A stretch of DNA of 50,314 nt from an uncultured Candidatus Saccharibacteria bacterium (GTDB taxonomy: Bacteria > Patescibacteriota > Minisyncoccia > UBA6257 > JACRHY01), in assembly GCA_964360035.1 (NCBI GenBank), contig CAYHUJ010000002.1:1-50314 (forward strand). The letters are read 5' to 3'. Positions 2,645-12,698 of this stretch are shown here, one piece after another (position 1 is the first letter of the stretch; every line of letters starts with the position of its first letter). A program made the position numbers and the translations under genes. The notes under the pieces were generated by a model that was not told the origin of the DNA, did no database searches, and saw only the letters and a program-made list of their open reading frames with translations.

Positions 2645-2671
2645 AAAAAACCCCCGCTTGAAACGGGGGGG
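2645..2671 (-). terminator. Rho-independent terminator for the minus-strand gene ending at 2674
   Basis: The stem is CCCCCG (2651-2656) / CGGGGG (2664-2669) with a 7-nt loop. On the minus strand it is followed by TTTTTT (plus-strand aaaaaa, 2645-2650). It starts 3 nt after the stop codon. Confidence 0.7.
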
Positions 2672-2673
2672 CA

Positions 2674-3120
2674 TCAAAGTTTGACGCGCATGGAGTCAAG
2701 AAAAGAATCATCGTAAGAAGGGACGCGGATGACGCGCTGTTGGCCGTCCGGCCCCGTTAGAAGAAATTCCACGAAGAATTTGCCGTTGTCGTCCCGGCCC
2801 GCTCCGGATTCCACCTTAATTTTCAATTCTTGAAAAAGCCGGACGATTTTCGCGGCGGAATTGATGGCTTCGTCCATTGCGTTGTCGGCCAAATTGAGAG
2901 CGGTAATCATTCTATTCAGATTGGCGTTGACCCGCCTGTCCCACTCTTTTTTGGCGTTTTCGTCCACGGCCCCCTCCTTTTTTAGGCGCGATATTTTTGT
3001 TTGTTCTGCGAGTATCTTATCAGGAATAAAGCGAATGGTAAATCCCCGCGCCCGACTGATAAAGGCAAAATCTTTGCCTCCCGTTCTTTTTTTCGGAGGA
3101 ATCTGGTAAAATAAAGTCAT
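2674..3120 (-). CDS. Hypothetical protein (148 aa from MTLFYQIPPKK)
   Basis: This is an open frame with its own terminator. I recognise no domain. I chose the internal ATG (CAT at 3118-3120) because the longer 166-aa version is antisense to the receiver remnant. Confidence 0.5.
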   Translation of the reverse strand: MTLFYQIPPKKRTGGKDFAFISRARGFTIRFIPDKILAEQTKISRLKKEGAVDENAKKEWDRRVNANLNRMITALNLADNAMDEAINSAAKIVRLFQELKIKVESGAGRDDNGKFFVEFLLTGPDGQQRVIRVPSYDDSFLDSMRVKL

Positions 3121-3316
3121 GCCCGAAGTAACGAAGAGAATTCTCATTGCCGAGGATAACAAAGCTCTTTCCAAAGCGTTGGAATTGAAACTGCCGAACT
3201 TCGGCTTTTCGGTGGCGGTCGCTTTTGACGGGGAAGAAGTTGCCGAATCGTTCGGAATTCCATACGCCGACTTGAACGCGCGGGTTTTAACCGGAACGGT
3301 GATTCGCGGCTTATGA
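3119..3316 (+). pseudogene. Truncated response-regulator receiver (REC) stub
   Basis: KRILIAEDNKALSKALELKLPNFGFSVAVAFDGEEV aligns with beta1-alpha1-beta2 of the two downstream REC domains (RVLIAEDEENLVRALQDNLEAEGYGVDVAYNGEEA). Unrelated sequence follows and the ORF stops at 65 aa, before the phospho-acceptor Asp region (LILLDLLMP in the paralogs). Its TGA overlaps the kinase ATG (ATGA at 3313-3316). Confidence 0.55.
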
Positions 3317-5202
3317 GCTTAAAACAACGGACAATTTTCTATTTTTCATTATTGCTGATTTTTTTCATCGGCGCGGCGGTTACGGTTTACTATTTTCAAT
3401 TTTCGCAAAAACTGGACGCCGTCGTGATTGACGCCGCCGGCAGAAACAGGATGCTTTCCCAAAGGATCGGTTTTCTGTCCGAGCAAGCCGTCCGTGGCGG
3501 CAGGGACGTCGGGGCGGAACTGCGGGAGGCAGTTGATCTTTATGACGCTTCATTTTACGCCATAAAAAACGGCGGCGTCGTTTTGGGAATCGCCGGCGGC
3601 GCGGTGTTGCCTCCGTCGCCGCCCGGCGTTTTGCCGTTGGTCTTATCAGCCGAAGAATTATGGCAAGCATATAAAAAACAAGCCGAAATAATCGCGCGGG
3701 AGCCGATAGCCGCGGACGGCGAGTTGAACGTTACCCTCTCCGGAGCGCTGGATTTCATTGAAGCCAACGAAGCGGAGATGCTGGCAAGAAATCACGCAGT
3801 GACGGAGGCCTACGTTGAGCTTAACAGGATTAAAAACCAAAACCTTTTCTCCGTTTTTTTGACAATCGGCGCAATAAACGCGGGAATAATCGCGTTAAGT
3901 TTTTATTTGATGAGGATATTTGTTTTGCGGCCGTTGGAACGGCTCAAGTCGGGGGTTGACAGCGTCAAAACGGGAAATTTGGATTACCGGTTGTCCGTGC
4001 CGCGCCGGGACGAAATCGGCCAGCTTTCGGCGGCTTTTAATGAAATGGTCGCGGAAATACGCGAGCGAACCGCCAAACTGAAGGAAGCCGAAGCCGAAGA
4101 CAAGGCGATGCTTTTCAGCGTTGCCGAGGGTTTGGTGGCGGTTGACAAAGAGGAAAGGGTAATGTTTGTTAATAAAGCGTTTGAAGAAATACTCGGCTGG
4201 AAAGGGGAAGAGGTGAAGGGCAAAAAGTTCACCGAATTTATTCCGCTATTAAACGAGAATGGCGAGCCGATTCCGGCATCGCAGCGGCCTATCGCCAAAG
4301 CGCTTAAAGGAATCACCACCATCACCACCGTCACCTCCGCCGCCGTTGTCGCCAATTTTTACCGGCGGAAAGACGGTTCCATGGTTCCCGTCAGCATCAA
4401 TGTCGCTCCCGTTATTTTAGACGATCAAATCGCGGGGGTCATAGAAGTTTTTCACGACATAACCAAAGAAAATGAAATTGAAAAAGCGCGGACGGATTTT
4501 TTGACACTTGCTTCGCACCAGCTTCGCACGCCCCTTTCCGGCACTAAGTGGCTTATTGAAACGATACGGCGGGGGGTTATCGGCCAGATGACGGAAAAGC
4601 AAAAATCGTATCTTGACCGAATTTATCAGATTAACGAAAGAATGATAGGACTCGTTTCCGACATGCTCAACGCTTTGCGCATTGAAAGCGGCGCCGCGGC
4701 GGCAAAAAAGGAAACCGTTTTTTTTCGGGAATTGTTTAAGGAAATTTCTTTAACGGCGGCGTCCGCGGCCGACGCGAAAAAAATTACGCTGCGCAACGCC
4801 CTTGAAAACCGCGAAGCGATTTCCGTGGAATCCGACGCCGCCATGCTGCGGAACATTCTTGAGTGTTTCGTCGGGAACGCCATCAATTATTCAAATCCCG
4901 GACGGGAGGTTGTCGTGGGCGCGAGAGAAGAGCCGGCAACCGTCGTTTTTTCGGTAAAGGACTCGGGAATCGGAATTCCCAGGGAAGAGCGAAGGAAAAT
5001 CACGGAAAGATTTTACCGGGCCTCAAACGCCAAACTTTTTAATCCCGAAGGAACCGGTCTCGGTCTTTACATCGCTTCAATGCTCGCGGAGAAAATAGGC
5101 GCCGAAATCTTCTTTGAATCCGAAGAGGGAAAGGGCTCCACATTTTTCTTGCGGGTTCCGAAAAAAGTCGCAAATAACAAAACAATTAAAAACAACCATT
5201 AA
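3313..5202 (+). CDS. Sensor histidine kinase (PilJ/NarX-type N-terminal sensor, TM, HAMP, PAS, HisKA, HATPase_c)
   Basis: An N-terminal TM helix is followed by the AAGRNRMLSQRIGFLSEQ box typical of PilJ/NarX four-helix sensors, then a second TM helix. HAMP: RPLERLKSGVDSV...IGQLSAAFNEMV. PAS: VAEGLVAVDKEERVMFVNKAFEEILGW. H-box: FLTLASHQLRTPLSG. G-boxes: DSGIGIP and GTGLGLYI. Confidence 0.9.
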   Translation: MSLKQRTIFYFSLLLIFFIGAAVTVYYFQFSQKLDAVVIDAAGRNRMLSQRIGFLSEQAVRGGRDVGAELREAVDLYDASFYAIKNGGVVLGIAGGAVLPPSPPGVLPLVLSAEELWQAYKKQAEIIAREPIAADGELNVTLSGALDFIEANEAEMLARNHAVTEAYVELNRIKNQNLFSVFLTIGAINAGIIALSFYLMRIFVLRPLERLKSGVDSVKTGNLDYRLSVPRRDEIGQLSAAFNEMVAEIRERTAKLKEAEAEDKAMLFSVAEGLVAVDKEERVMFVNKAFEEILGWKGEEVKGKKFTEFIPLLNENGEPIPASQRPIAKALKGITTITTVTSAAVVANFYRRKDGSMVPVSINVAPVILDDQIAGVIEVFHDITKENEIEKARTDFLTLASHQLRTPLSGTKWLIETIRRGVIGQMTEKQKSYLDRIYQINERMIGLVSDMLNALRIESGAAAAKKETVFFRELFKEISLTAASAADAKKITLRNALENREAISVESDAAMLRNILECFVGNAINYSNPGREVVVGAREEPATVVFSVKDSGIGIPREERRKITERFYRASNAKLFNPEGTGLGLYIASMLAEKIGAEIFFESEEGKGSTFFLRVPKKVANNKTIKNNH

Positions 5203-5214
5203 ATCAATATCAAA

Positions 5215-5592
5215 ATGAACAAGGTCTTAATCGTTGAAGATGAAGAATTTCTGGCGTCCGCCCTCAAGGACAATCTTGAGTTGGAGGGTTGCGCGATAGA
5301 CGTCGCCTATAACGGCGAGGAGGCGATGGAGCGGATTCGGAAGAGCCGTCCCAATCTCATTCTTCTTGATCTTTTGATGCCCAAAAAGGACGGCTTCTAC
5401 GTGCTTGAAGAGCTCAAGAAGAACGACGAATGGAAACTGATTCCGGTGATCGTTCTTTCCAATCTGGGCGGAGACGCGGATATAAAAAGGGCGCTGGATA
5501 TGGGAGCGAATGATTATTTCGTGAAGTCCCAGCATCCGATTGAAGAGGTAGTGGAAAAAGTAAAAACTTATCTTGGGGGCAAAAAAGCATGA
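5215..5592 (+). CDS. Stand-alone response regulator receiver (CheY-like, 125 aa)
   Basis: KVLIVEDEE...LILLDLLMPKKDGF...VIVLSNLG...DYFVKS carries the acidic pocket, the phospho-Asp, the conserved S/T and the conserved K of REC domains. There is no output domain. Confidence 0.9.
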   Translation: MNKVLIVEDEEFLASALKDNLELEGCAIDVAYNGEEAMERIRKSRPNLILLDLLMPKKDGFYVLEELKKNDEWKLIPVIVLSNLGGDADIKRALDMGANDYFVKSQHPIEEVVEKVKTYLGGKKA

Positions 5593-7901
5593 TTTACCCG
5601 TTACCCAACGTGAAAAGGCGCGTGTTAATCGCGGAAGACGAGGAAAACCTGGTCCGCGCTCTTCAGGACAATCTTGAAGCGGAGGGATACGGCGTTGATG
5701 TCGCTTACAACGGCGAAGAAGCGGTGGAGCATCTGCGCAATCAGATGCCCGACTTGATTCTTCTTGATCTTTTGATGCCCAAAAAGGACGGATTCTACGT
5801 GCTGGAGGAAGTCAAGAAAAGTTCTGAATTCAAGCGGATTCCCGTGTTGGTACTTTCCAACCTTGAAGGAGACGCCGAAATAAAACGCGCGCTGGAAATT
5901 GGAGCGGACGATTACTGCGTCAAATCTCAGCACTCAATGGAAGAAATTATTGAAAAGATAAAAAAATATCTCGGCGCGGGAGCGCGAATGGGATTAGCCG
6001 AAAGCGGCTTCGTGAAGCCGAAAAAATCGAAAGCGGAAATTTACAGGGAAAAAAGCGAGCGGGAGAAAATAATCAATGCCGCGAAAGCGGAAACCGAAGT
6101 CGCGTCGGCCGAAAAAGAGCGGGCGACGTCGGCTCTTGCCGAGGAGCGGCAGAAAGCCGAAGAAGCGATAACGCTGGAAAAAAGCCGCGCGGAAAAAATC
6201 ATCGCCGAAGAAAGAAAACGGGCGGAAGAGGCGCTGGCCGAAGAACGCCGAAAAGTCAAAGAGGCCGGGGAAAATCTGGAGCTTGAAAAGAAACGGAAAG
6301 AAGCCGCCGAGTTTAAAGAGCTGGTTTTGGAGGAAACGCTTGAGGAAGAAAAAAGAAAAGCGGGGGCGATTGTTTCCGAAGAAAGAAAACGGGCGGACTG
6401 GCTTATCGCGGAAGAGCGCGGGAAGGCCGAAACGCTTCTCGCCGAAAGGGAGCGTCTTGAAAGAGCGCTGGCGGAAGAACGGAGGAAGGAAGAGGCCGTT
6501 TTGGATGAGCTCCGAAAGACCGGAGTTGAACGAGCCGCCGCCGAAGCGGAGCGGGTTGCCGCGGAAAAAAGAGCGGAGGCGGCGCTGGCGGGAAAAAAAT
6601 CAGCGGAAGCGAGGGGAAAAATTTTGGAAGCGGGAAAACGACAAGCGGAAGAGGCGCTGGCTGAAGAAAAAAGAAAGGAAGAGCTACTGCTTGCCGAAGA
6701 GCGGAAAAAGACCGGGGCGATTTTGGCTGAAAAAAACCGGACAGAAGCGGCTCTCGCCGGAGAGCGGGAAAAAGAGCGGGTTATTTTAGCCGAGGTTGAA
6801 AAGACCAATGTTGAACAAGCCACCGCAAAAAGAGAAGCGGAAGCCGTCTTGGCGGAAAAAGAACGGATGGCAAAAGAAGAAAAACAGCTGGAATCTGAAA
6901 TAAAAATCGCCCGAAAACGGGCGGAGCGGGCGCGGCTGGCTCTCGCCGAAGAAAGAGCGAAAGAGAAATTGGCGTCCAAGGCGGCGACGTCGGCTCTTGC
7001 CGAGGAGCGGCAGAAAGCCGAAGAAGCGATAACGCTGGAAAAAAGCCGCGCGGAAAAAATCATCGCCGAAGAAAGAAAACGGGCGGAAGAGGCGCTGATA
7101 ATGGAGGAGAAAAGGAGGGGAGTTGAATCGGTATTGCTTGAGACCTCCTTGTCCGCGAAAAAAAGGAAGGAGGCGGAAGAAATAAAAAAGACGCGGGAAG
7201 CGTTTCAAAAAGAAAGCGGAAAACTCAAAAAGGCCCTGGCCGCCGAGAAAAAGCGGCTGGCGGAAGAAAAGAAAAAGGAAAGAGCCGCCGTCCTCGCCGA
7301 AAGAAAGAAGGCGCGGTGGGCGCTTATTGCCGAAAGGAAGCGGCTGGCCGAAGAAAAAAAGAAGGGGAAAGCGGCTGTTATTCGGGAAAGAAAACGGGAA
7401 GGGGAACGAAAAAGGAAAGAAGAAAAAGAGAAAATTATCGCCGAGAGGAAGAAGGCCGGATCTGTTCTCGCGAAAAGAGGCGAAAAATTCAGAGAAATTT
7501 TGGCCGTGAAAAAACAGGAGAAAAAACAGGCAGTCCGGGCCGAAAGGGAGAGAATAAAATCAGCCCTATTGGAAAAAAGAAAAAAAATTATTCGAGCCGT
7601 CGTCTTCGCGCAAAAAATGAAAGAAGAGCGGAAAATTCTCGTCGGGAAGGAAAGGGCGCGGGCGGTTCTCCTCGCCGAGAAAAAGCGGCTGGCGGAAGAA
7701 AAGAAAAAGGAAAGAGCCGCCGTCCTCGCCGAAAGAAAGAAGGCGCGGTGGGCGCTTATTGCCGAAAAAAGAAAAGAACGGGCGGTTCTGGCCGCGGAGA
7801 AAAGAAAAGGGGCCGCGACTCTCGCGATGGCGAGAAGAAAAGCCGAAAAAGCGAAAATGGCCCTCGCGAAAATCGAAAAACAAGTTAAAAAAGCCCTTTA
7901 A
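5589..7901 (+). CDS. Response regulator: N-terminal REC fused to ~640 aa of periodic E/R/K/A-rich helical repeat
   Basis: The first ~130 aa are a close paralog of the preceding REC, including a 35-nt identical DNA run (5359-5393 = 5757-5791). The rest is a single open frame of motifs such as ALAEERQKAEEAI, IIAEERKRAEEAL and LLAEERKKTGAIL. The start overlaps the upstream stop (ATGA at 5589-5592). Confidence 0.85.
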   Translation: MIYPLPNVKRRVLIAEDEENLVRALQDNLEAEGYGVDVAYNGEEAVEHLRNQMPDLILLDLLMPKKDGFYVLEEVKKSSEFKRIPVLVLSNLEGDAEIKRALEIGADDYCVKSQHSMEEIIEKIKKYLGAGARMGLAESGFVKPKKSKAEIYREKSEREKIINAAKAETEVASAEKERATSALAEERQKAEEAITLEKSRAEKIIAEERKRAEEALAEERRKVKEAGENLELEKKRKEAAEFKELVLEETLEEEKRKAGAIVSEERKRADWLIAEERGKAETLLAERERLERALAEERRKEEAVLDELRKTGVERAAAEAERVAAEKRAEAALAGKKSAEARGKILEAGKRQAEEALAEEKRKEELLLAEERKKTGAILAEKNRTEAALAGEREKERVILAEVEKTNVEQATAKREAEAVLAEKERMAKEEKQLESEIKIARKRAERARLALAEERAKEKLASKAATSALAEERQKAEEAITLEKSRAEKIIAEERKRAEEALIMEEKRRGVESVLLETSLSAKKRKEAEEIKKTREAFQKESGKLKKALAAEKKRLAEEKKKERAAVLAERKKARWALIAERKRLAEEKKKGKAAVIRERKREGERKRKEEKEKIIAERKKAGSVLAKRGEKFREILAVKKQEKKQAVRAERERIKSALLEKRKKIIRAVVFAQKMKEERKILVGKERARAVLLAEKKRLAEEKKKERAAVLAERKKARWALIAEKRKERAVLAAEKRKGAATLAMARRKAEKAKMALAKIEKQVKKAL
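6122..6236 (+). repeat. 115-bp perfect intragenic direct repeat, copy 1 (partner 6983-7097)
   Basis: Compared base by base, ggcgacgtcggctcttgccgaggagcggcag...gggcggaagaggcgctg is identical at an offset of 861 bp (in frame). It encodes ATSALAEERQKAEEAITLEKSRAEKIIAEERKRAEEAL. Confidence 0.9.
6983..7097 (+). repeat. 115-bp perfect intragenic direct repeat, copy 2 (partner 6122-6236)
   Basis: See the partner entry. Identity ends at 6237/7098 (g versus a). Confidence 0.9.
7241..7335 (+). repeat. 95-bp perfect intragenic direct repeat, copy 1 (partner 7673-7767)
   Basis: cgccgagaaaaagcggctggcggaagaaaagaaaaagg...gcgcttattgccgaaa is identical at an offset of 432 bp (in frame). It encodes AEKKRLAEEKKKERAAVLAERKKARWALIAE. 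Confidence 0.9.
7673..7767 (+). repeat. 95-bp perfect intragenic direct repeat, copy 2 (partner 7241-7335)
   Basis: See the partner entry. The flanking bases differ (c7240 versus t7672, g7336 versus a7768). Confidence 0.9.
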
Positions 7902-7922
7902 CCGATTCAGCCGAAAAGTTAA

Positions 7923-10904
7923 ATGAAATTTACGGCGAATTTGATAAAAAAAACGGGGTTTGTTCTTATTATGGCCATTGTCGTCGGCCTGCTGTTTTCC
8001 GGCGGCCCGTTTTTTTTCCGTATTCCGGCGGCCCGCGCGGCGGTTGCTTTCGTCGGTTGTGGCGCGGCCAGCGCGGTTGGAAGCGGTAATATGACATCAG
8101 TGGGAATCCCTTCCGGAATTCAGAATAACGACATTCTTATCACTTATGTTCATACCAGGGACAACGTGGATTCTTCCATGCCGGCCGACTGGACCAATAA
8201 CGTTGCCGGCAACGGCAATACGACCAATCGGCTGGAAATTTTCTGGAAAAGAACTGCCGGCTCCGAGTCCGCCCCGACCGTTACCCATTCCGGCGGCGAT
8301 TCATCCATTGCAACGATGTGCGCCTTTCGGGAGGTTGACACGGCGGGCAGCCCCTTTAACGCCGTCGGTTCCGTGCAGAGCAATGCCGGCTCTCCCATAA
8401 GCACCGCCGCGATTTCCACGACGGTAAACAACGCGATGATAATTCACGTTTTTGGTTCCAATGACAACAACGCCTGGGGAAGCTACACGGGCATTCCGAC
8501 AAACGAAGCGGCGCAAAACGATAATGCCAGCGGATCGGACGACAGCTCGGGGATGACTTACGGCGCGCAGTCAACGGCGGGTTCCACGGGAACGGCGGGG
8601 GCGTCCCAAACACTTCGCGGTCCCGACGCCGGCGTTTCCGTATTAATGGCATTAAGGCCGTTTGTCGCGGTTACGACTTTAGGCGACGGCAGCGACCCCT
8701 CCAACGCCGCCGTTGCTCCGGGGGCGGCCGCGACCGATTTGGATGCGTTCACTCTACAAACAAACACGGGCGCCGATACGGTTACTGCGGCAACAGTCAC
8801 CTTATCGGCGGGTTCCTCCGGCGGGCTTTCTCTGGTCGCTATCACCAACGACGCCGGCTCCGTCACTTATTGCTCGCAGGCGGATCCGCCTTCCGATTCC
8901 GTTTCCCTTTCTTCCTGCGGAATCCCCGTAACCACCTCTTTAACTCAATTTAAAATCAGAATTACTCCCAAAATTCACGCCGATATGCCGGTTCCCCCGG
9001 GTTCTGATTATTCCGTTACCGGAACAATTACTTCATTTACCAGCACCAATTCCCAGTCGGGCGCTGATGCGGACAGCGCCACGGTAACGATTGACAACGC
9101 CTCGCCGGCAAACGTTACCGGAGCGAGCGGAACCGCCGGCGATTCCCAGGTTTCTTTAAGCTGGACCAATCCCGCGGACTCGGATTTTCACAGCGCGGTT
9201 GTTTTAAGAAGGGCCGGAGCGGCGACAAGCGACGCGCCCGCGGAAGGAGCCGTTTACGTCGTCGGTAACGCGGTCGGCTCGTCGATTGTCGCTTGCGTCG
9301 TCGCGTCGCCGTCAAGCGGCTGCGCCGACACCGGCCTTACCAACGGCACCGAGTATCATTATCGGATTTTTGCGAGGGATAACAACGTTAATTATTCCGA
9401 TACCGGCGCAGTACCGACAGGTTCGCCATTTACGCCCGTCGCAACTCCCGACACCACCCCGCCCGCGGCGGTTACCGACCTTGCGCTTTCAGACGCCTCT
9501 GATTCCGCGATAACGGTTTCCTGGACCGCGCCCGGCGATGACGGCAACACGGGAACGGCGACAAGTTATGATTTGCGGTATTCAACCTCTCTCATCACGG
9601 CCGGAAATTTTGATTCCGCGACGCAGGTAACGGGCGAACCGGCTCCGCAACCCGCGGGCACTTCCCAGTCAAAAGTTGTCTCGGGGCTTTCTCCGAGCAC
9701 GCTGTATTATTTCGCGCTGAAGACCTCCGATGAAGTGCCGAATGTTTCGGCGATGTCAAACGTGCCGAGCGGCACGACTTCCGTTACTCCCGACACCACC
9801 CCGCCCGCGGCGGTTACCGATTTGGCCACCGGAACGGTGACTTCCTCGTCCATAGCCATTTCCTGGACCGCGCCCGGCGATGACGGCAACACGGGAACGG
9901 CGACAAGTTATGATTTGCGGTATTCAACCTCTCTCATCACGGCCGGAAATTTTGATTCCGCGACGCAGGTAACGGGCGAACCGGCTCCGCAACCCGCGGG
10001 CACTTCCCAGTCAAAAGTTGTCTCGGGGCTTTCTCCGAGCACGCTGTATTATTTCGCGCTGAAGACCTCCGATGAAGTGCCGAATGTTTCGGCGATGTCA
10101 AACGTGCCGAGTTTGGCCACCGCGGCCGAAGGAGGCGGAGTGCCGCAGCCGTCCGCCGGCGGCGGAGGGCCGGGGGTCGCGCCGCGCCGCGCCGTTTTTT
10201 CCGGTCAAGCGTATCCTCAAAGCAAAATAGAAATCTTGCGGAAAAGCATGACGGACGAGATTTACGCGCAGGTGCCGTCGGAACATTCCCAAATAAATCC
10301 AGACGGAACGTTTCTGATTTCATTTACCGGCCTTATCGGCGCCGATTATCTCTTTGCTCTTCGCGCGTATGACAAAGATAACCGCAATACCGGCGTATTA
10401 ACGTTTAACGTGTCGCTTTTCGGCGACTTATTTGAAGCGAAAGACATCCTCGTTTCGCCTACGGTCGGTTTGAGCAAATCTTTAATTTCCAAAAACGACG
10501 TTGTTAAATTAAGGGGTTACGCCGGTCCCGGTTTCGTGGTAAAATTAGAAGTAGACGGATTAAAGCGCGAAGACGTCAAGGCGGATTCGTCCGGATTGTG
10601 GAGTTTTGATCTGGGCGTCACTTATCTGACTTACGGCGATCATCGCGTCAGGGCGCGGCAGGTTTCGCCCGACGGGAAAACGGCGAGTAATTTTTCACTT
10701 TCGCGCATTTTCAGAATTTCGCAGATGCCTTCGCTCAAGGCGGATATCAACAACGACGGCATGGTGACAATCGGTGATTGGAGCATTTTTCTTTTCCGAT
10801 GGGGAAGCAAAAACGAGGAATTACGAATGAAAAACGATCTTAATAACGACGGAAAAGTAAATGTATTTGATTTGAGTATTTTTCTTCAAGCAATGAGAAA
10901 ATAA
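7923..10904 (+). CDS. Large secreted/surface protein: N-terminal TM/signal, unknown ~230-aa domain, FN3-like repeats, Ig-like domains, C-terminal dockerin
   Basis: The hydrophobic N-terminus is GFVLIMAIVVGLLFSGGPFFF. Two near-identical FN3-like units follow (ISWTAPGDDGNTGTATSYDLRYS...LSPSTLYYFALKTSDE). The C-terminal pair of Ca-binding dockerin segments is DINNDGMVTIGDWSIF and DLNNDGKVNVFDLSIF, at about 10739-10901. Confidence 0.85.
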   Translation: MKFTANLIKKTGFVLIMAIVVGLLFSGGPFFFRIPAARAAVAFVGCGAASAVGSGNMTSVGIPSGIQNNDILITYVHTRDNVDSSMPADWTNNVAGNGNTTNRLEIFWKRTAGSESAPTVTHSGGDSSIATMCAFREVDTAGSPFNAVGSVQSNAGSPISTAAISTTVNNAMIIHVFGSNDNNAWGSYTGIPTNEAAQNDNASGSDDSSGMTYGAQSTAGSTGTAGASQTLRGPDAGVSVLMALRPFVAVTTLGDGSDPSNAAVAPGAAATDLDAFTLQTNTGADTVTAATVTLSAGSSGGLSLVAITNDAGSVTYCSQADPPSDSVSLSSCGIPVTTSLTQFKIRITPKIHADMPVPPGSDYSVTGTITSFTSTNSQSGADADSATVTIDNASPANVTGASGTAGDSQVSLSWTNPADSDFHSAVVLRRAGAATSDAPAEGAVYVVGNAVGSSIVACVVASPSSGCADTGLTNGTEYHYRIFARDNNVNYSDTGAVPTGSPFTPVATPDTTPPAAVTDLALSDASDSAITVSWTAPGDDGNTGTATSYDLRYSTSLITAGNFDSATQVTGEPAPQPAGTSQSKVVSGLSPSTLYYFALKTSDEVPNVSAMSNVPSGTTSVTPDTTPPAAVTDLATGTVTSSSIAISWTAPGDDGNTGTATSYDLRYSTSLITAGNFDSATQVTGEPAPQPAGTSQSKVVSGLSPSTLYYFALKTSDEVPNVSAMSNVPSLATAAEGGGVPQPSAGGGGPGVAPRRAVFSGQAYPQSKIEILRKSMTDEIYAQVPSEHSQINPDGTFLISFTGLIGADYLFALRAYDKDNRNTGVLTFNVSLFGDLFEAKDILVSPTVGLSKSLISKNDVVKLRGYAGPGFVVKLEVDGLKREDVKADSSGLWSFDLGVTYLTYGDHRVRARQVSPDGKTASNFSLSRIFRISQMPSLKADINNDGMVTIGDWSIFLFRWGSKNEELRMKNDLNNDGKVNVFDLSIFLQAMRK
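9444..10111 (+). repeat. Tandem duplication, period 342 bp (114 codons), inside the dockerin protein gene
   Basis: 9444-9478 matches 9786-9820. 9519-9769 matches 9861-10111, apparently base for base. The ~40 nt between these blocks has diverged. Confidence 0.9.
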
Positions 10905-10917
10905 CCGTCTTAAACTT

Positions 10918-12666
10918 ATGCGCAAGCATTATTTTGTAATAATTTTCACACTCTCGCTTTTTCTGGCGCTGACTCGGGGGGCGTTGGCGGCGAGCATTTA
11001 CCTATTGCCCGAGCAGCGCGCCATTAATCGCGGAGAGATTTTTGTCGTAGACGTTAAAATAGATTCCGAAGGGGAAGATATCAATGCCGCCGAAGCGAGG
11101 ATAAGCTGGCCGGCGGGCGTTTTAGAATTTGTTGAAGCGAGCAAAAACGGTTCGGTGTTCAATTTTTGGGTGGAAGAGCCGCAATTTTCCGCCTCGTCCA
11201 ATTCCGTGAGGTTTATTAGCGGAACCACCAACGGCGTTTCGGGCGGGGCGCTGCAGGTTTTAAAAATTAAATTTAAAGGGGCGGGTAGCGGCATCGCGGA
11301 CGTTTCAATTGCCGATGCCGCCGTAATCGCGGCGGACGGCAAGGGAACAAACGTGTTATCTCGAGTCGGGAGCGCGAGCTACCGCGTCGGCATAGAGGCC
11401 GCACAGCCGGAAGCCGCCGTTCCGTCCCGGGAAGCGCCGCAGCCGGTGCCCATTGACAGGAAAGTTGTTCCCGCCGCAAAACTGCCGCAGAAACCGAATG
11501 TTTCCGTACCTCTTTATCCTGACCAAGAGAAATGGCACAACTATTTTGGCGAAGCGGTTGTCTTATGGGATGTGCCCGAAGACGTCGTAAAAATCGCCGT
11601 TTCGGCAGACCAAAGCCCCAAAGCGGAGCCGATGAGCGTTGAAGAAAAACTTTTTACCGGTAAAAAGCTTGGAGTTTTGGAAGAGGGGATATGGTATGTC
11701 CACGCGCAATTCAAGAACAACATCGGTTGGGGTCCCGTGGCGCATTACCGCATCGCGATTGATGCCGCGCCGCCGCTTGAATTTGAGATAACCGCGAGCG
11801 AAGGGGAGGTGACGGACAACCCCGCTCCGGTTCTCCAGTTTAAAACTTCCGACGCCCTTTCTGGTCTTGTGTGGTATCGGGTAAAAATAGACGGCGACGA
11901 GCCGATAAAAATAGACGCGAAAGATTTCAACGGCAGTTTCACTTTGCCGCTGCAGCCGCCGGGCGCGCGCCGGGTGGTCGTAAAGGCGTGGGATTTGGCG
12001 GGAAACAGCGTTACCGACGACATTAATTTGGAAATTCTTCCCATTCCGTCGCCTAATATCACTTTTGTCACCGCGGAACTTTTTTCCGACGAGGAAAGGG
12101 GTTTGACGGTGAAAGGAACGGCGCTGCCCGGCCTTGATGTTTTGTTGCGAGTTTGGCAACTTTTGGACGCGGAAAGGGGCGAAATGGTTGTTGAGAGCAT
12201 CGCTTTGGCGGACGAGAAGGGCGTATGGGAAACGACATTTGACAAGCTATTGCGGAACGGCCGGTATGTTGTCGCGGCCCAAAGCCGGGACGTCCGCGGC
12301 GCGTTGAGTTTGGGGGTGGATTCGCCGGAGGTGCTGGTAAAATCAAAGCCAATTATTCAAATCGGTTTCATCCAGCTTGGCAAAGGCGGCGCGGCGCTGC
12401 TTCTGCTCGTGATTTTGGTGGCGGGATTCGGCGGCGGCGTGTGGTTTTACAGGAAACGGCAGGAAAAATTGGCGTTGCGGGTTTCTTTCGCGGCGTCGGA
12501 AATCGCGAAAATATTCCAGCTTTTAAAATCGGACCTTGATCGGCTTCGCTTGTCGCTGCGGACGCCCGCGACGGAAGACGATGAATACGCCCTTAAAAAA
12601 ATGGAGGAGAACCTTCAGAAAATGGAAATGTATCTCAAAAAGGGAGTTGAGAAGATAAAGAAATAG
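10918..12666 (+). CDS. Cohesin-domain protein with Ig-like modules, C-terminal TM anchor and short cytoplasmic coiled-coil tail
   Basis: A signal-like N-terminus is followed by IYLLPEQRAINRGEIFVVDVKIDSEGEDINAAEARISWPAGVLEFVE...GALQVLKIKFKGAGSGIADVSI. This is the cohesin-type beta-sandwich pattern (best-scoring strand motifs: F.V.V......INA.......D...L). The TM helix GGAALLLLVILVAGFGGGVWFY lies near 12381-12452 and is followed by RKRQEK. Confidence 0.8.
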   Translation: MRKHYFVIIFTLSLFLALTRGALAASIYLLPEQRAINRGEIFVVDVKIDSEGEDINAAEARISWPAGVLEFVEASKNGSVFNFWVEEPQFSASSNSVRFISGTTNGVSGGALQVLKIKFKGAGSGIADVSIADAAVIAADGKGTNVLSRVGSASYRVGIEAAQPEAAVPSREAPQPVPIDRKVVPAAKLPQKPNVSVPLYPDQEKWHNYFGEAVVLWDVPEDVVKIAVSADQSPKAEPMSVEEKLFTGKKLGVLEEGIWYVHAQFKNNIGWGPVAHYRIAIDAAPPLEFEITASEGEVTDNPAPVLQFKTSDALSGLVWYRVKIDGDEPIKIDAKDFNGSFTLPLQPPGARRVVVKAWDLAGNSVTDDINLEILPIPSPNITFVTAELFSDEERGLTVKGTALPGLDVLLRVWQLLDAERGEMVVESIALADEKGVWETTFDKLLRNGRYVVAAQSRDVRGALSLGVDSPEVLVKSKPIIQIGFIQLGKGGAALLLLVILVAGFGGGVWFYRKRQEKLALRVSFAASEIAKIFQLLKSDLDRLRLSLRTPATEDDEYALKKMEENLQKMEMYLKKGVEKIKK

Positions 12667-12674
12667 GATTTAAT

Positions 12675-12698
12675 GCCCCGCGAGGAGTCCCGCGGGGC
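12675..12698 (+). terminator. GC-rich hairpin after the cohesin gene (possible terminator, no U-tract)
   Basis: GCCCCGCG (12675-12682) pairs with CGCGGGGC (12691-12698) around an 8-nt loop. No T-run follows, so a terminator role is uncertain. Confidence 0.3.

Follow-up and report, generated by a model that had tools for sequence, protein, structure and literature searches.

The 50,314-nucleotide (nt) stretch of DNA analysed here as one window (contig CAYHUJ010000002.1, positions 1–50,314, forward strand, to which coordinates refer unless another locus is named) carries a block of six genes that encode a sensor histidine kinase, receiver proteins, a secreted dockerin protein and a membrane-anchored cohesin protein (table 1). 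Across related loci, the conserved core of this block consists of the kinase, one small receiver, the dockerin protein and the cohesin anchor, often with another receiver following, i.e. a kinase and phosphorylatable receivers are co-inherited with a dockerin–cohesin pair. We propose, with a confidence just short of even, that this block represents a single instance of a cassette conserved in Parcubacteria which builds a regulated cell-surface tether.

Conservation of the cassette among Parcubacteria

A scan of species-representative genomes yielded 195 carriers of the anchor gene, and the best 80 of these 195 loci were analysed. Together with the window they form a set of 81 loci; the related loci amount to 1.26 Mb of sequence and belong to about 18 named Parcubacteria lineages (Niyogi-, Harrison-, Wolfe-, Yonath-, Nealson-, Azam-, Giovannoni-, Lloyd-, Ryan-, Adler-, Nomura-, Staskawicz-, Colwell-, Yanofsky-, Magasanik- and Uhrbacteria, plus others). 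Open reading frames (ORFs) in these loci were labelled by HMMER with the window proteins, plus the dockerin pattern, and upstream receivers and kinases were counted only in loci with at least 5 kb of upstream sequence (n = 48). The anchor family itself is large and conserved over its full length, with 298 word-index matches and 2187 cluster representatives at E ≤ 1e-30.

Five contexts from different assemblies share the order of a receiver, then a protein ending in a dockerin, then the anchor; four have the kinase upstream of these genes, whereas in the remaining one it lies downstream. Across the related loci, a dockerin-type gene lies directly upstream of the anchor gene in 71 of 74 cases, a stand-alone receiver is found no more than three genes upstream in 44 of 48 and a kinase no more than four genes upstream in 41 of 48, with median junction gaps of 9–33 nt within the cassettes. 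Where an upstream receiver or kinase is missing, most loci have a receiver and/or kinase shortly after the anchor gene, and an extra receiver directly follows the anchor gene in 24 of 72 loci. Outside the cassette, receivers and kinases make up 0.6% and 0.8% of flank genes, respectively, and 171 of the 284 flank genes have no relative in the flanks of other loci. All 54 dockerin-pattern ORFs found in the 1.26 Mb adjoin an anchor gene.

Given these upstream counts, the low background in the flanks and the unrelated nature of the flanks, chance adjacency is rejected. Although the shared ancestry of the loci inflates formal probabilities, a gene order that is retained amid scrambled surroundings is strong evidence of a functional unit. 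A linkage that is not kept in related genomes had been named beforehand as a result refuting the novel system suggested by a first-pass annotation of the window; the linkage is in fact kept in nearly all related genomes examined, in surroundings that differ. What stays constant within the cassette is the small receiver, the stalk-and-dockerin part of the secreted protein and the whole anchor including its cytoplasmic tail; what varies is the sensor part of the kinase and the head of the dockerin protein. No conserved extra regulator gene was found in the cassette across the related loci.

Parcubacteria account for a large share of uncultured bacterial diversity, have tiny genomes in which regulators are few, and presumably depend on contact with other cells; to our knowledge, hardly anything has been learned about their means of attachment or sensing. 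Since genomes as reduced as these keep the cassette together in about 18 named lineages, it is likely to be important to Parcubacteria biology.

Table 1. Features of the gene block, with positions in the window.
Feature	Positions	Strand	Basis
Receiver relic ('REC stub'), 65 aa	3119–3316	+	Partial receiver similarity
Sensor histidine kinase, membrane	3313–5202	+	Pfam, NCBIfam, hydrophobic segments
Stand-alone receiver, 125 aa	5215–5592	+	Pfam Response_reg, E = 4.9e-25
Receiver (aa 1–130) plus 640-aa helical repeat, 770 aa	5589–7901	+	Pfam; repeat part without family
Secreted dockerin protein, variable part	7923–10154	+	Pfam fn3; not conserved between loci
Dockerin protein, constant part	10155–10904	+	Two Ig-like stalk domains and C-terminal dockerin
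Cohesin anchor, 582 aa	10918–12666	+	Predicted models, Foldseek, family alignment
GC-rich hairpin after last gene	12675–12698	+	−19.7 kcal/mol, z = −2.9; without U-tract

The dockerin protein and the neighbouring cohesin anchor

In the predicted models, the product of the last gene is a type-I membrane protein with the cohesin outermost, three immunoglobulin (Ig)-like domains, one transmembrane (TM) helix and a helical cytoplasmic tail of ~70 amino acids (aa). A signal peptide (aa 1–23) is followed by the cohesin (aa 24–157, nt 10987–11388), a linker, the Ig-like domains (aa 196–475), the TM helix (aa 489–511) and a helix–loop–helix tail (aa 512–582, nt 12451–12663). Modelled over its full length (pLDDT 79), the protein has a signal helix, then a beta domain (aa 25–157), a disordered linker, the Ig-like domains, the TM helix and the tail; membrane anchoring with a cytoplasmic tail, as already proposed in the first-pass annotation, is what both the model and the family alignment indicate. 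The tail is 69–78 aa long in nearly all relatives.

The cohesin itself gave no match to Pfam Cohesin (PF00963) in the window's anchor even at E ≤ 10 and no cohesin match in a sequence search of the PDB, and the earlier cohesin call therefore required a further test. A fold search with the full-length anchor was swamped by generic Ig-repeat matches, so that a domain-only model was needed. The model of aa 24–165 (pLDDT 91.6, pTM 0.85) has the cohesin fold, i.e. a nine-stranded flattened beta-sandwich or jelly-roll of about 140 residues, and in a Foldseek search against the PDB ranks 1–37 were all cohesins (TM-scores 0.51–0.77; top match 2xdh, E = 4.8e-9). Pfam Cohesin is also found in 13 of 32 full-length relatives (best E = 8e-6), and the distant relatives P0438 and P0434 reach 45 bits with a Pfam cut-off of 24.1. 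The assignment stands because of these fold matches and the Pfam matches in relatives, which bear it out where the window sequence does not.

The more distant relatives P0404 and P0438 (L090 3810–6515) each comprise two tandem cohesin anchors, with a ~320-aa cohesin–Ig–TM unit that precedes the full anchor within one ORF, and the upstream gene in L090 again ends in a dockerin. The anchor-type Ig-like domain (profile positions ~190–390) is repeated 14–32 times in the giant proteins P0309 (4269 aa), P0311, P0315, P0398 and P0421.

The dockerin protein of the window (993 aa, ORF 7923–10904) comprises an N-terminal signal or anchor helix, a head of ~250 aa, a linker, two fibronectin type III (fn3) domains (aa ~516–727), the Ig-like stalk (aa ~745–930) and the dockerin (aa 940–986, nt 10740–10880). 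Dockerin_1 (PF00404) is matched with 23.7 bits by the whole protein and with 28.0 bits by the isolated C-terminus (Pfam cut-off 22.9), and the PDB dockerin 2y3n_B matches with E = 0.004. The two calcium loops, DINNDGMVTIGD followed by WSIFLFRW and DLNNDGKVNVFD followed by LSIFLQAM, form a duplicated F-hand, i.e. two D-x-N-x-D-G-x-V-x-x-x-D loops each followed by a helix, and the two-loop pattern, each loop with its (W/F)SIFL helix, is kept in 69 aligned C-termini (the window and 68 species-representative loci). Profile match, PDB match and two canonical calcium loops thus confirm the dockerin assignment made earlier.

Conservation among the dockerin proteins is confined to their C-terminal ~250 aa: about 82 of 84 neighbour proteins (L001–L087) align there, and total lengths in the related loci range from about 110 to 3300 aa. 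No Pfam family was found for the ~250-aa head of the window protein, the Pfam results at E ≤ 1 on head and stalk being unusable. At about 55% identity, this head (aa 38–286, nt 8034–8780) recurs in at least 60 other Patescibacteria proteins, which carry other C-terminal modules (fn3, TIG, DUF11/CLIPPER, dockerin); its placement at aa ~38–286 is an assumption, as the matches span about half of the queried aa 38–500. The fn3 copies at 9510–9769 and 9852–10111 are 99% identical in their DNA along a stretch of 260 nt, as would be expected from a tandem duplication of recent date.

Genomic adjacency in 71 of 74 loci strongly suggests that the neighbouring cohesin keeps the dockerin protein attached to the cell, and as a consequence each cell would display a variable head on a constant anchor. 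Such a dockerin-borne, lineage-variable head could be ligand-binding or adhesive.

One may also think of a structural surface coat, with the anchor as the membrane stalk and the dockerin protein as the outer canopy of an S-layer-like envelope, whose homeostasis would be tuned by the two-component genes. A C-terminal TM anchor recalls archaeal S-layer glycoproteins, the family occurs very widely (2187 cluster representatives at the threshold given above), and the full-length model matches the S-layer proteins 7ptp and 8cka along with Ig-repeat adhesins. These full-length matches, however, have TM-scores of 0.13–0.23 only and reflect generic Ig repeats, and head sizes from ~100 to 3300 aa fit a lattice poorly; we consider such a coat very unlikely.

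Cohesin and dockerin are the defining modules of the cellulosome, and a miniature version might assemble polysaccharide-degrading enzymes on the surface. A cellulosome combines a multi-cohesin scaffoldin with many dockerin-bearing hydrolases, whereas here there is a single cohesin per anchor, searches of Pfam, NCBIfam and the PDB detected no glycoside hydrolase or carbohydrate-binding module in the window's dockerin protein, and dockerins are limited to one in the 50-kb window and to none away from the cassette in the 1.26 Mb of related loci. A cellulosomal role is therefore extremely improbable.

The nearest functional analogue of the pair is CttA–ScaE of Ruminococcus flavefaciens, in which a cell-anchored protein uses its only cohesin to hold an adhesin with an X-module–dockerin, the two genes being adjacent. 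Both systems combine a non-enzymatic stalk–dockerin protein with a single-cohesin, cell-bound protein, and in both the gene for the dockerin protein immediately precedes that for the anchor. In contrast to the anchor described here, however, ScaE is attached to the wall by sortase and has neither a TM helix nor a cytoplasmic tail, and its cluster, which belongs to a cellulose-degrading system of Firmicutes, contains no kinase or receiver. OlpA and OlpC of Clostridium thermocellum (PDB 3ul4, 4dh2) share an N-terminal single type-I-like surface cohesin, with fold TM-scores of 0.72–0.77, but are anchored by SLH repeats, bind enzyme dockerins and are regulated by sigma-I/RsgI, with no linked two-component pair. 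Use outside plant cell-wall degradation is a further likeness to the cohesin of Archaeoglobus fulgidus (2xdh) and to toxin complexes of Clostridium perfringens (2jh2, 2w1n, 2vo8); these non-cellulosomal pairs differ in their anchoring and have no reported conserved link to a kinase or receiver.

Kinase, receivers and proposed control of the surface complex

The kinase of the window consists of a first TM segment, a PilJ-like periplasmic four-helix sensor (aa 31–131), a second TM segment, HAMP (aa 203–251) and PAS (aa 264–385) domains and a catalytic part with the two Pfam domains of a two-component kinase, HisKA (aa 392–460, E = 3.9e-12) and HATPase_c (aa 508–618, E = 3.1e-22). The PilJ-like sensor is flanked by the two hydrophobic segments, one near aa 7 and the other near aa 178, and the His box reads ASHQLRTPL. 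In the related loci, the sensor parts of the module kinases vary and include periplasmic PilJ/HAMP, multi-TM and soluble PAS-only types.

At least 25 related loci contain a further sensor beside the cassette, which is of PAS-only or TM/HAMP type without a kinase core and has a C-terminal helix with the conserved motif N-K-x-M-(V/T)-G-R-E-(L/I)-K-M-x-E-L-K-K-E-I; it is absent from the window. Examples are an ORF of 429 aa in L065, located two genes before the kinase, as well as copies in L031, L039, L057, L069 and L018 (11721–13970). Related ORFs of 138–140 aa occur near the kinase in L052, L056, L065, L066 and L071; the L065 copy appears hemerythrin-like by eye only, which hints at an O2, NO or iron input in this sub-lineage. 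In one Parcubacteria genome, a complete chemotaxis-type cluster (MCP, CheW, CheY, CheB, CheA; L003 1–5458) lies directly upstream of the cassette.

The 125-aa stand-alone receiver has the full phospho-acceptor set (E8, D9, D52, S82, K104), and these residues are nearly invariant in module receivers, with the Asp kept in 89 of 90. The two complete receivers of the window are 70% identical to each other, have no output domain and are, according to NCBIfam, nearest to receiver domains of the OmpR/PhoB/YycF type. Pfam and NCBIfam scans concur with the earlier statement that no window receiver has a DNA-binding domain, and none was found in any of the 90 module receivers checked. Receivers encoded upstream and downstream of the anchor fall into partly separate clades. 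Forty-six kinase–receiver junctions with a median gap of 27.5 nt suggest that the kinase may phosphorylate the adjacent receivers.

The 65-aa stub and the fusion of the second complete receiver to a helical repeat occur in the window only among the 81 loci. No Pfam match was found for the stub, its weak NCBIfam matches span profile positions 2–41 only, and its best matches are module receivers, with E values of about 1e-6. Since its similarity to receivers is limited to the first ~40 residues and it lacks the phospho-acceptor Asp, the stub is a relic and, judging from its sequence, probably non-functional; of its earlier listing as one of three receivers, the receiver origin stands and membership in the conserved core does not. 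The 640-aa extension of the fusion protein is rich in Glu, Lys, Arg and Ala with a periodicity of 33 nt (11 residues). It has no family match in Pfam at E ≤ 1, and a homology search matched the receiver part only and gave no homologue covering the repeat region; two long receiver proteins that were examined further, P0151 and P0162, are encoded in unrelated contexts. The giant helical receiver, which had been put forward as part of the module, is lineage-specific and falls outside the conserved core. Direct repeats of 100% identity inside the helical-repeat region of this gene (6122–6236 and 6983–7097, 115 nt; 7241–7335 and 7673–7767, 95 nt) mean either that internal duplication took place very recently or that the assembly may have been collapsed or expanded here. 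The very long, charged helical extension that the window's duplicated receiver gained could be a spacer or scaffold.

As the receivers have no DNA-binding output, they would act by protein contact. Such action is established for the single-domain receivers CheY (on FliM), DivK and CpdR, which are likewise output-less phospho-receivers and offer a parallel for the proposed action on the cytoplasmic side of a surface apparatus; their targets, however, have no sequence or structural relation to the cassette, and contact is only proposed here. In a regulated tether, the kinase might sense a lineage-specific cue and phosphorylate the small receiver or receivers, whose most economical target might be the conserved cytoplasmic tail of the anchor. 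The phosphorylated receiver might then change the anchoring, clustering or presentation of the surface complex, i.e. exert inside-out control.

Taken further, the cassette would be a bacterial counterpart of an integrin-type adhesion receiver, in which the tail docks the phosphorylated stand-alone receiver and kinase input switches presentation or clustering of a host-specific head, or surface engagement is reported back to the kinase. This far-reaching version, for which integrin inside-out signalling is a functional analogy only, we regard as rather unlikely. If it were true, Parcubacteria, which are thought to live attached to other cells, would possess a dedicated and widely conserved device for the control of attachment.

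Several observations weigh against a tether controlled in such a way. In a mirror-tree analysis with partial Mantel statistics, dockerin versus cohesin gave 0.32 and dockerin versus the Ig region of the anchor 0.31, i.e. the sequences give no specific signal of dockerin–cohesin co-evolution. No fusion of a receiver or kinase to the anchor of the 'Rosetta-stone' kind was found among the longer family members, and the length class of the tail shows no pattern with receiver or kinase architecture. The tail is only moderately conserved in sequence, is modelled at a pLDDT of 54–73 and matches no known receiver-binding family in Pfam at E ≤ 1. Moreover, the loci share ancestry, so that binomial figures exaggerate their independence, and co-transcription of the block is inferred from gene spacing alone.

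The genes could instead form an ordinary regulatory cassette, in which kinase and receiver control transcription of the surface genes via an unlinked partner (a sigma or anti-sigma factor or a DNA-binding protein) and the receiver never touches the anchor. Two-component genes are often located beside their targets, the similarity of the window receivers to the OmpR/PhoB/YycF type would be in line with such a role, and a precedent exists in Clostridium cellulolyticum, where the two-component system XydS/XydR lies beside the xyl-doc cluster of dockerin-enzyme genes (PMC3572039). XydR, however, is DNA-binding and targets 14 hemicellulases, and its cluster contains no cohesin anchor (PMC3572039). 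In the cassette described here, not one of the 90 module receivers has a DNA-binding domain, a conserved extra regulator gene is missing and a passive anchor would not need a cytoplasmic tail of constrained length. On balance, such indirect transcriptional control seems unlikely.

Signalling might also run from the outside in, such that the head binds a host or substrate ligand, the tail of the anchor relays this to the kinase and the receivers act elsewhere, e.g. on pili or division. Many module kinases have no TM segment and PAS domains only, and thus need input from another protein; variability of the head is to be expected for a ligand-binding part, and extra kinase-less PAS sensors cluster nearby. 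Yet many module kinases, including that of the window, have a periplasmic sensor of their own, and the ~70-aa tail of the single-pass anchor contains no recognized signalling domain. We consider outside-in sensing distinctly unlikely.

The searchable full-text literature on dockerin or cohesin together with candidate phyla radiation (CPR) phyla or two-component proteins contains no published description of the cassette, in agreement with the initial view that no kinase–receiver–cohesin–dockerin module has been described; the only relevant remark found concerns a protein with a dockerin domain that is essential in a Saccharibacterium under cultivation (PMC10633639). The modules as such are familiar, and it is their conserved combination and the anchoring by a TM helix plus tail that apparently are undescribed. 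With the proposed tether, cohesin–dockerin pairing would be extended to a new phylum-level group, where it takes the form of one regulated tether on the cell surface, and a first link would be made between this pairing and phospho-signalling through receivers without DNA-binding output. Four small soluble fragments, i.e. cohesin, stalk–dockerin, receiver and tail, make it testable in vitro without culturing.

Gene junctions and flanking sequence

All six ORFs are on the forward strand, and successive junctions are an overlap of 4 nt, a gap of 12 nt, another overlap of 4 nt and gaps of 21 and 13 nt, just as the first-pass annotation had described them. Co-directional genes with such short or overlapping junctions are what defines a candidate operon, and the related loci are spaced similarly. 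Promoter-like sites across the block equal the shuffled expectation in number, and 22 terminator-like sites were found inside the block with 23.8 expected by chance; the candidate operon structure thus relies on spacing, and the earlier statement that the block contains no internal terminator cannot be affirmed. A fresh promoter had been assumed for dnaG, ahead of which the scan found no sigma-70-like promoter. The hairpin that follows the cohesin-anchor gene is both genuine and stable, but since it has no U-tract, the role as a terminator that had been ascribed to it is only putative.

Upstream of the block, a 148-aa gene without a family match (2674–3120, minus strand, in the region 2651–3120) stands back to back with the stub, and the start codons of the two overlap by 2 nt. 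With the ATG of the stub overlapping the start of this divergent gene, there is no intergenic space for a promoter. The 148-aa gene ends at a strong intrinsic-terminator-like hairpin, CCCCCGTTTCAAGCGGGGG, followed by a T-run (2669–2651). Further upstream, the first ~2 kb of the window (region 1–2400) have a G+C content of 40%, compared with about 50% elsewhere in the window, and encode a Bro-N domain protein (166–1008) and a methyltransferase (1074–1796). This low-G+C DNA beside a truncated receiver gene may be derived from a phage or mobile element.

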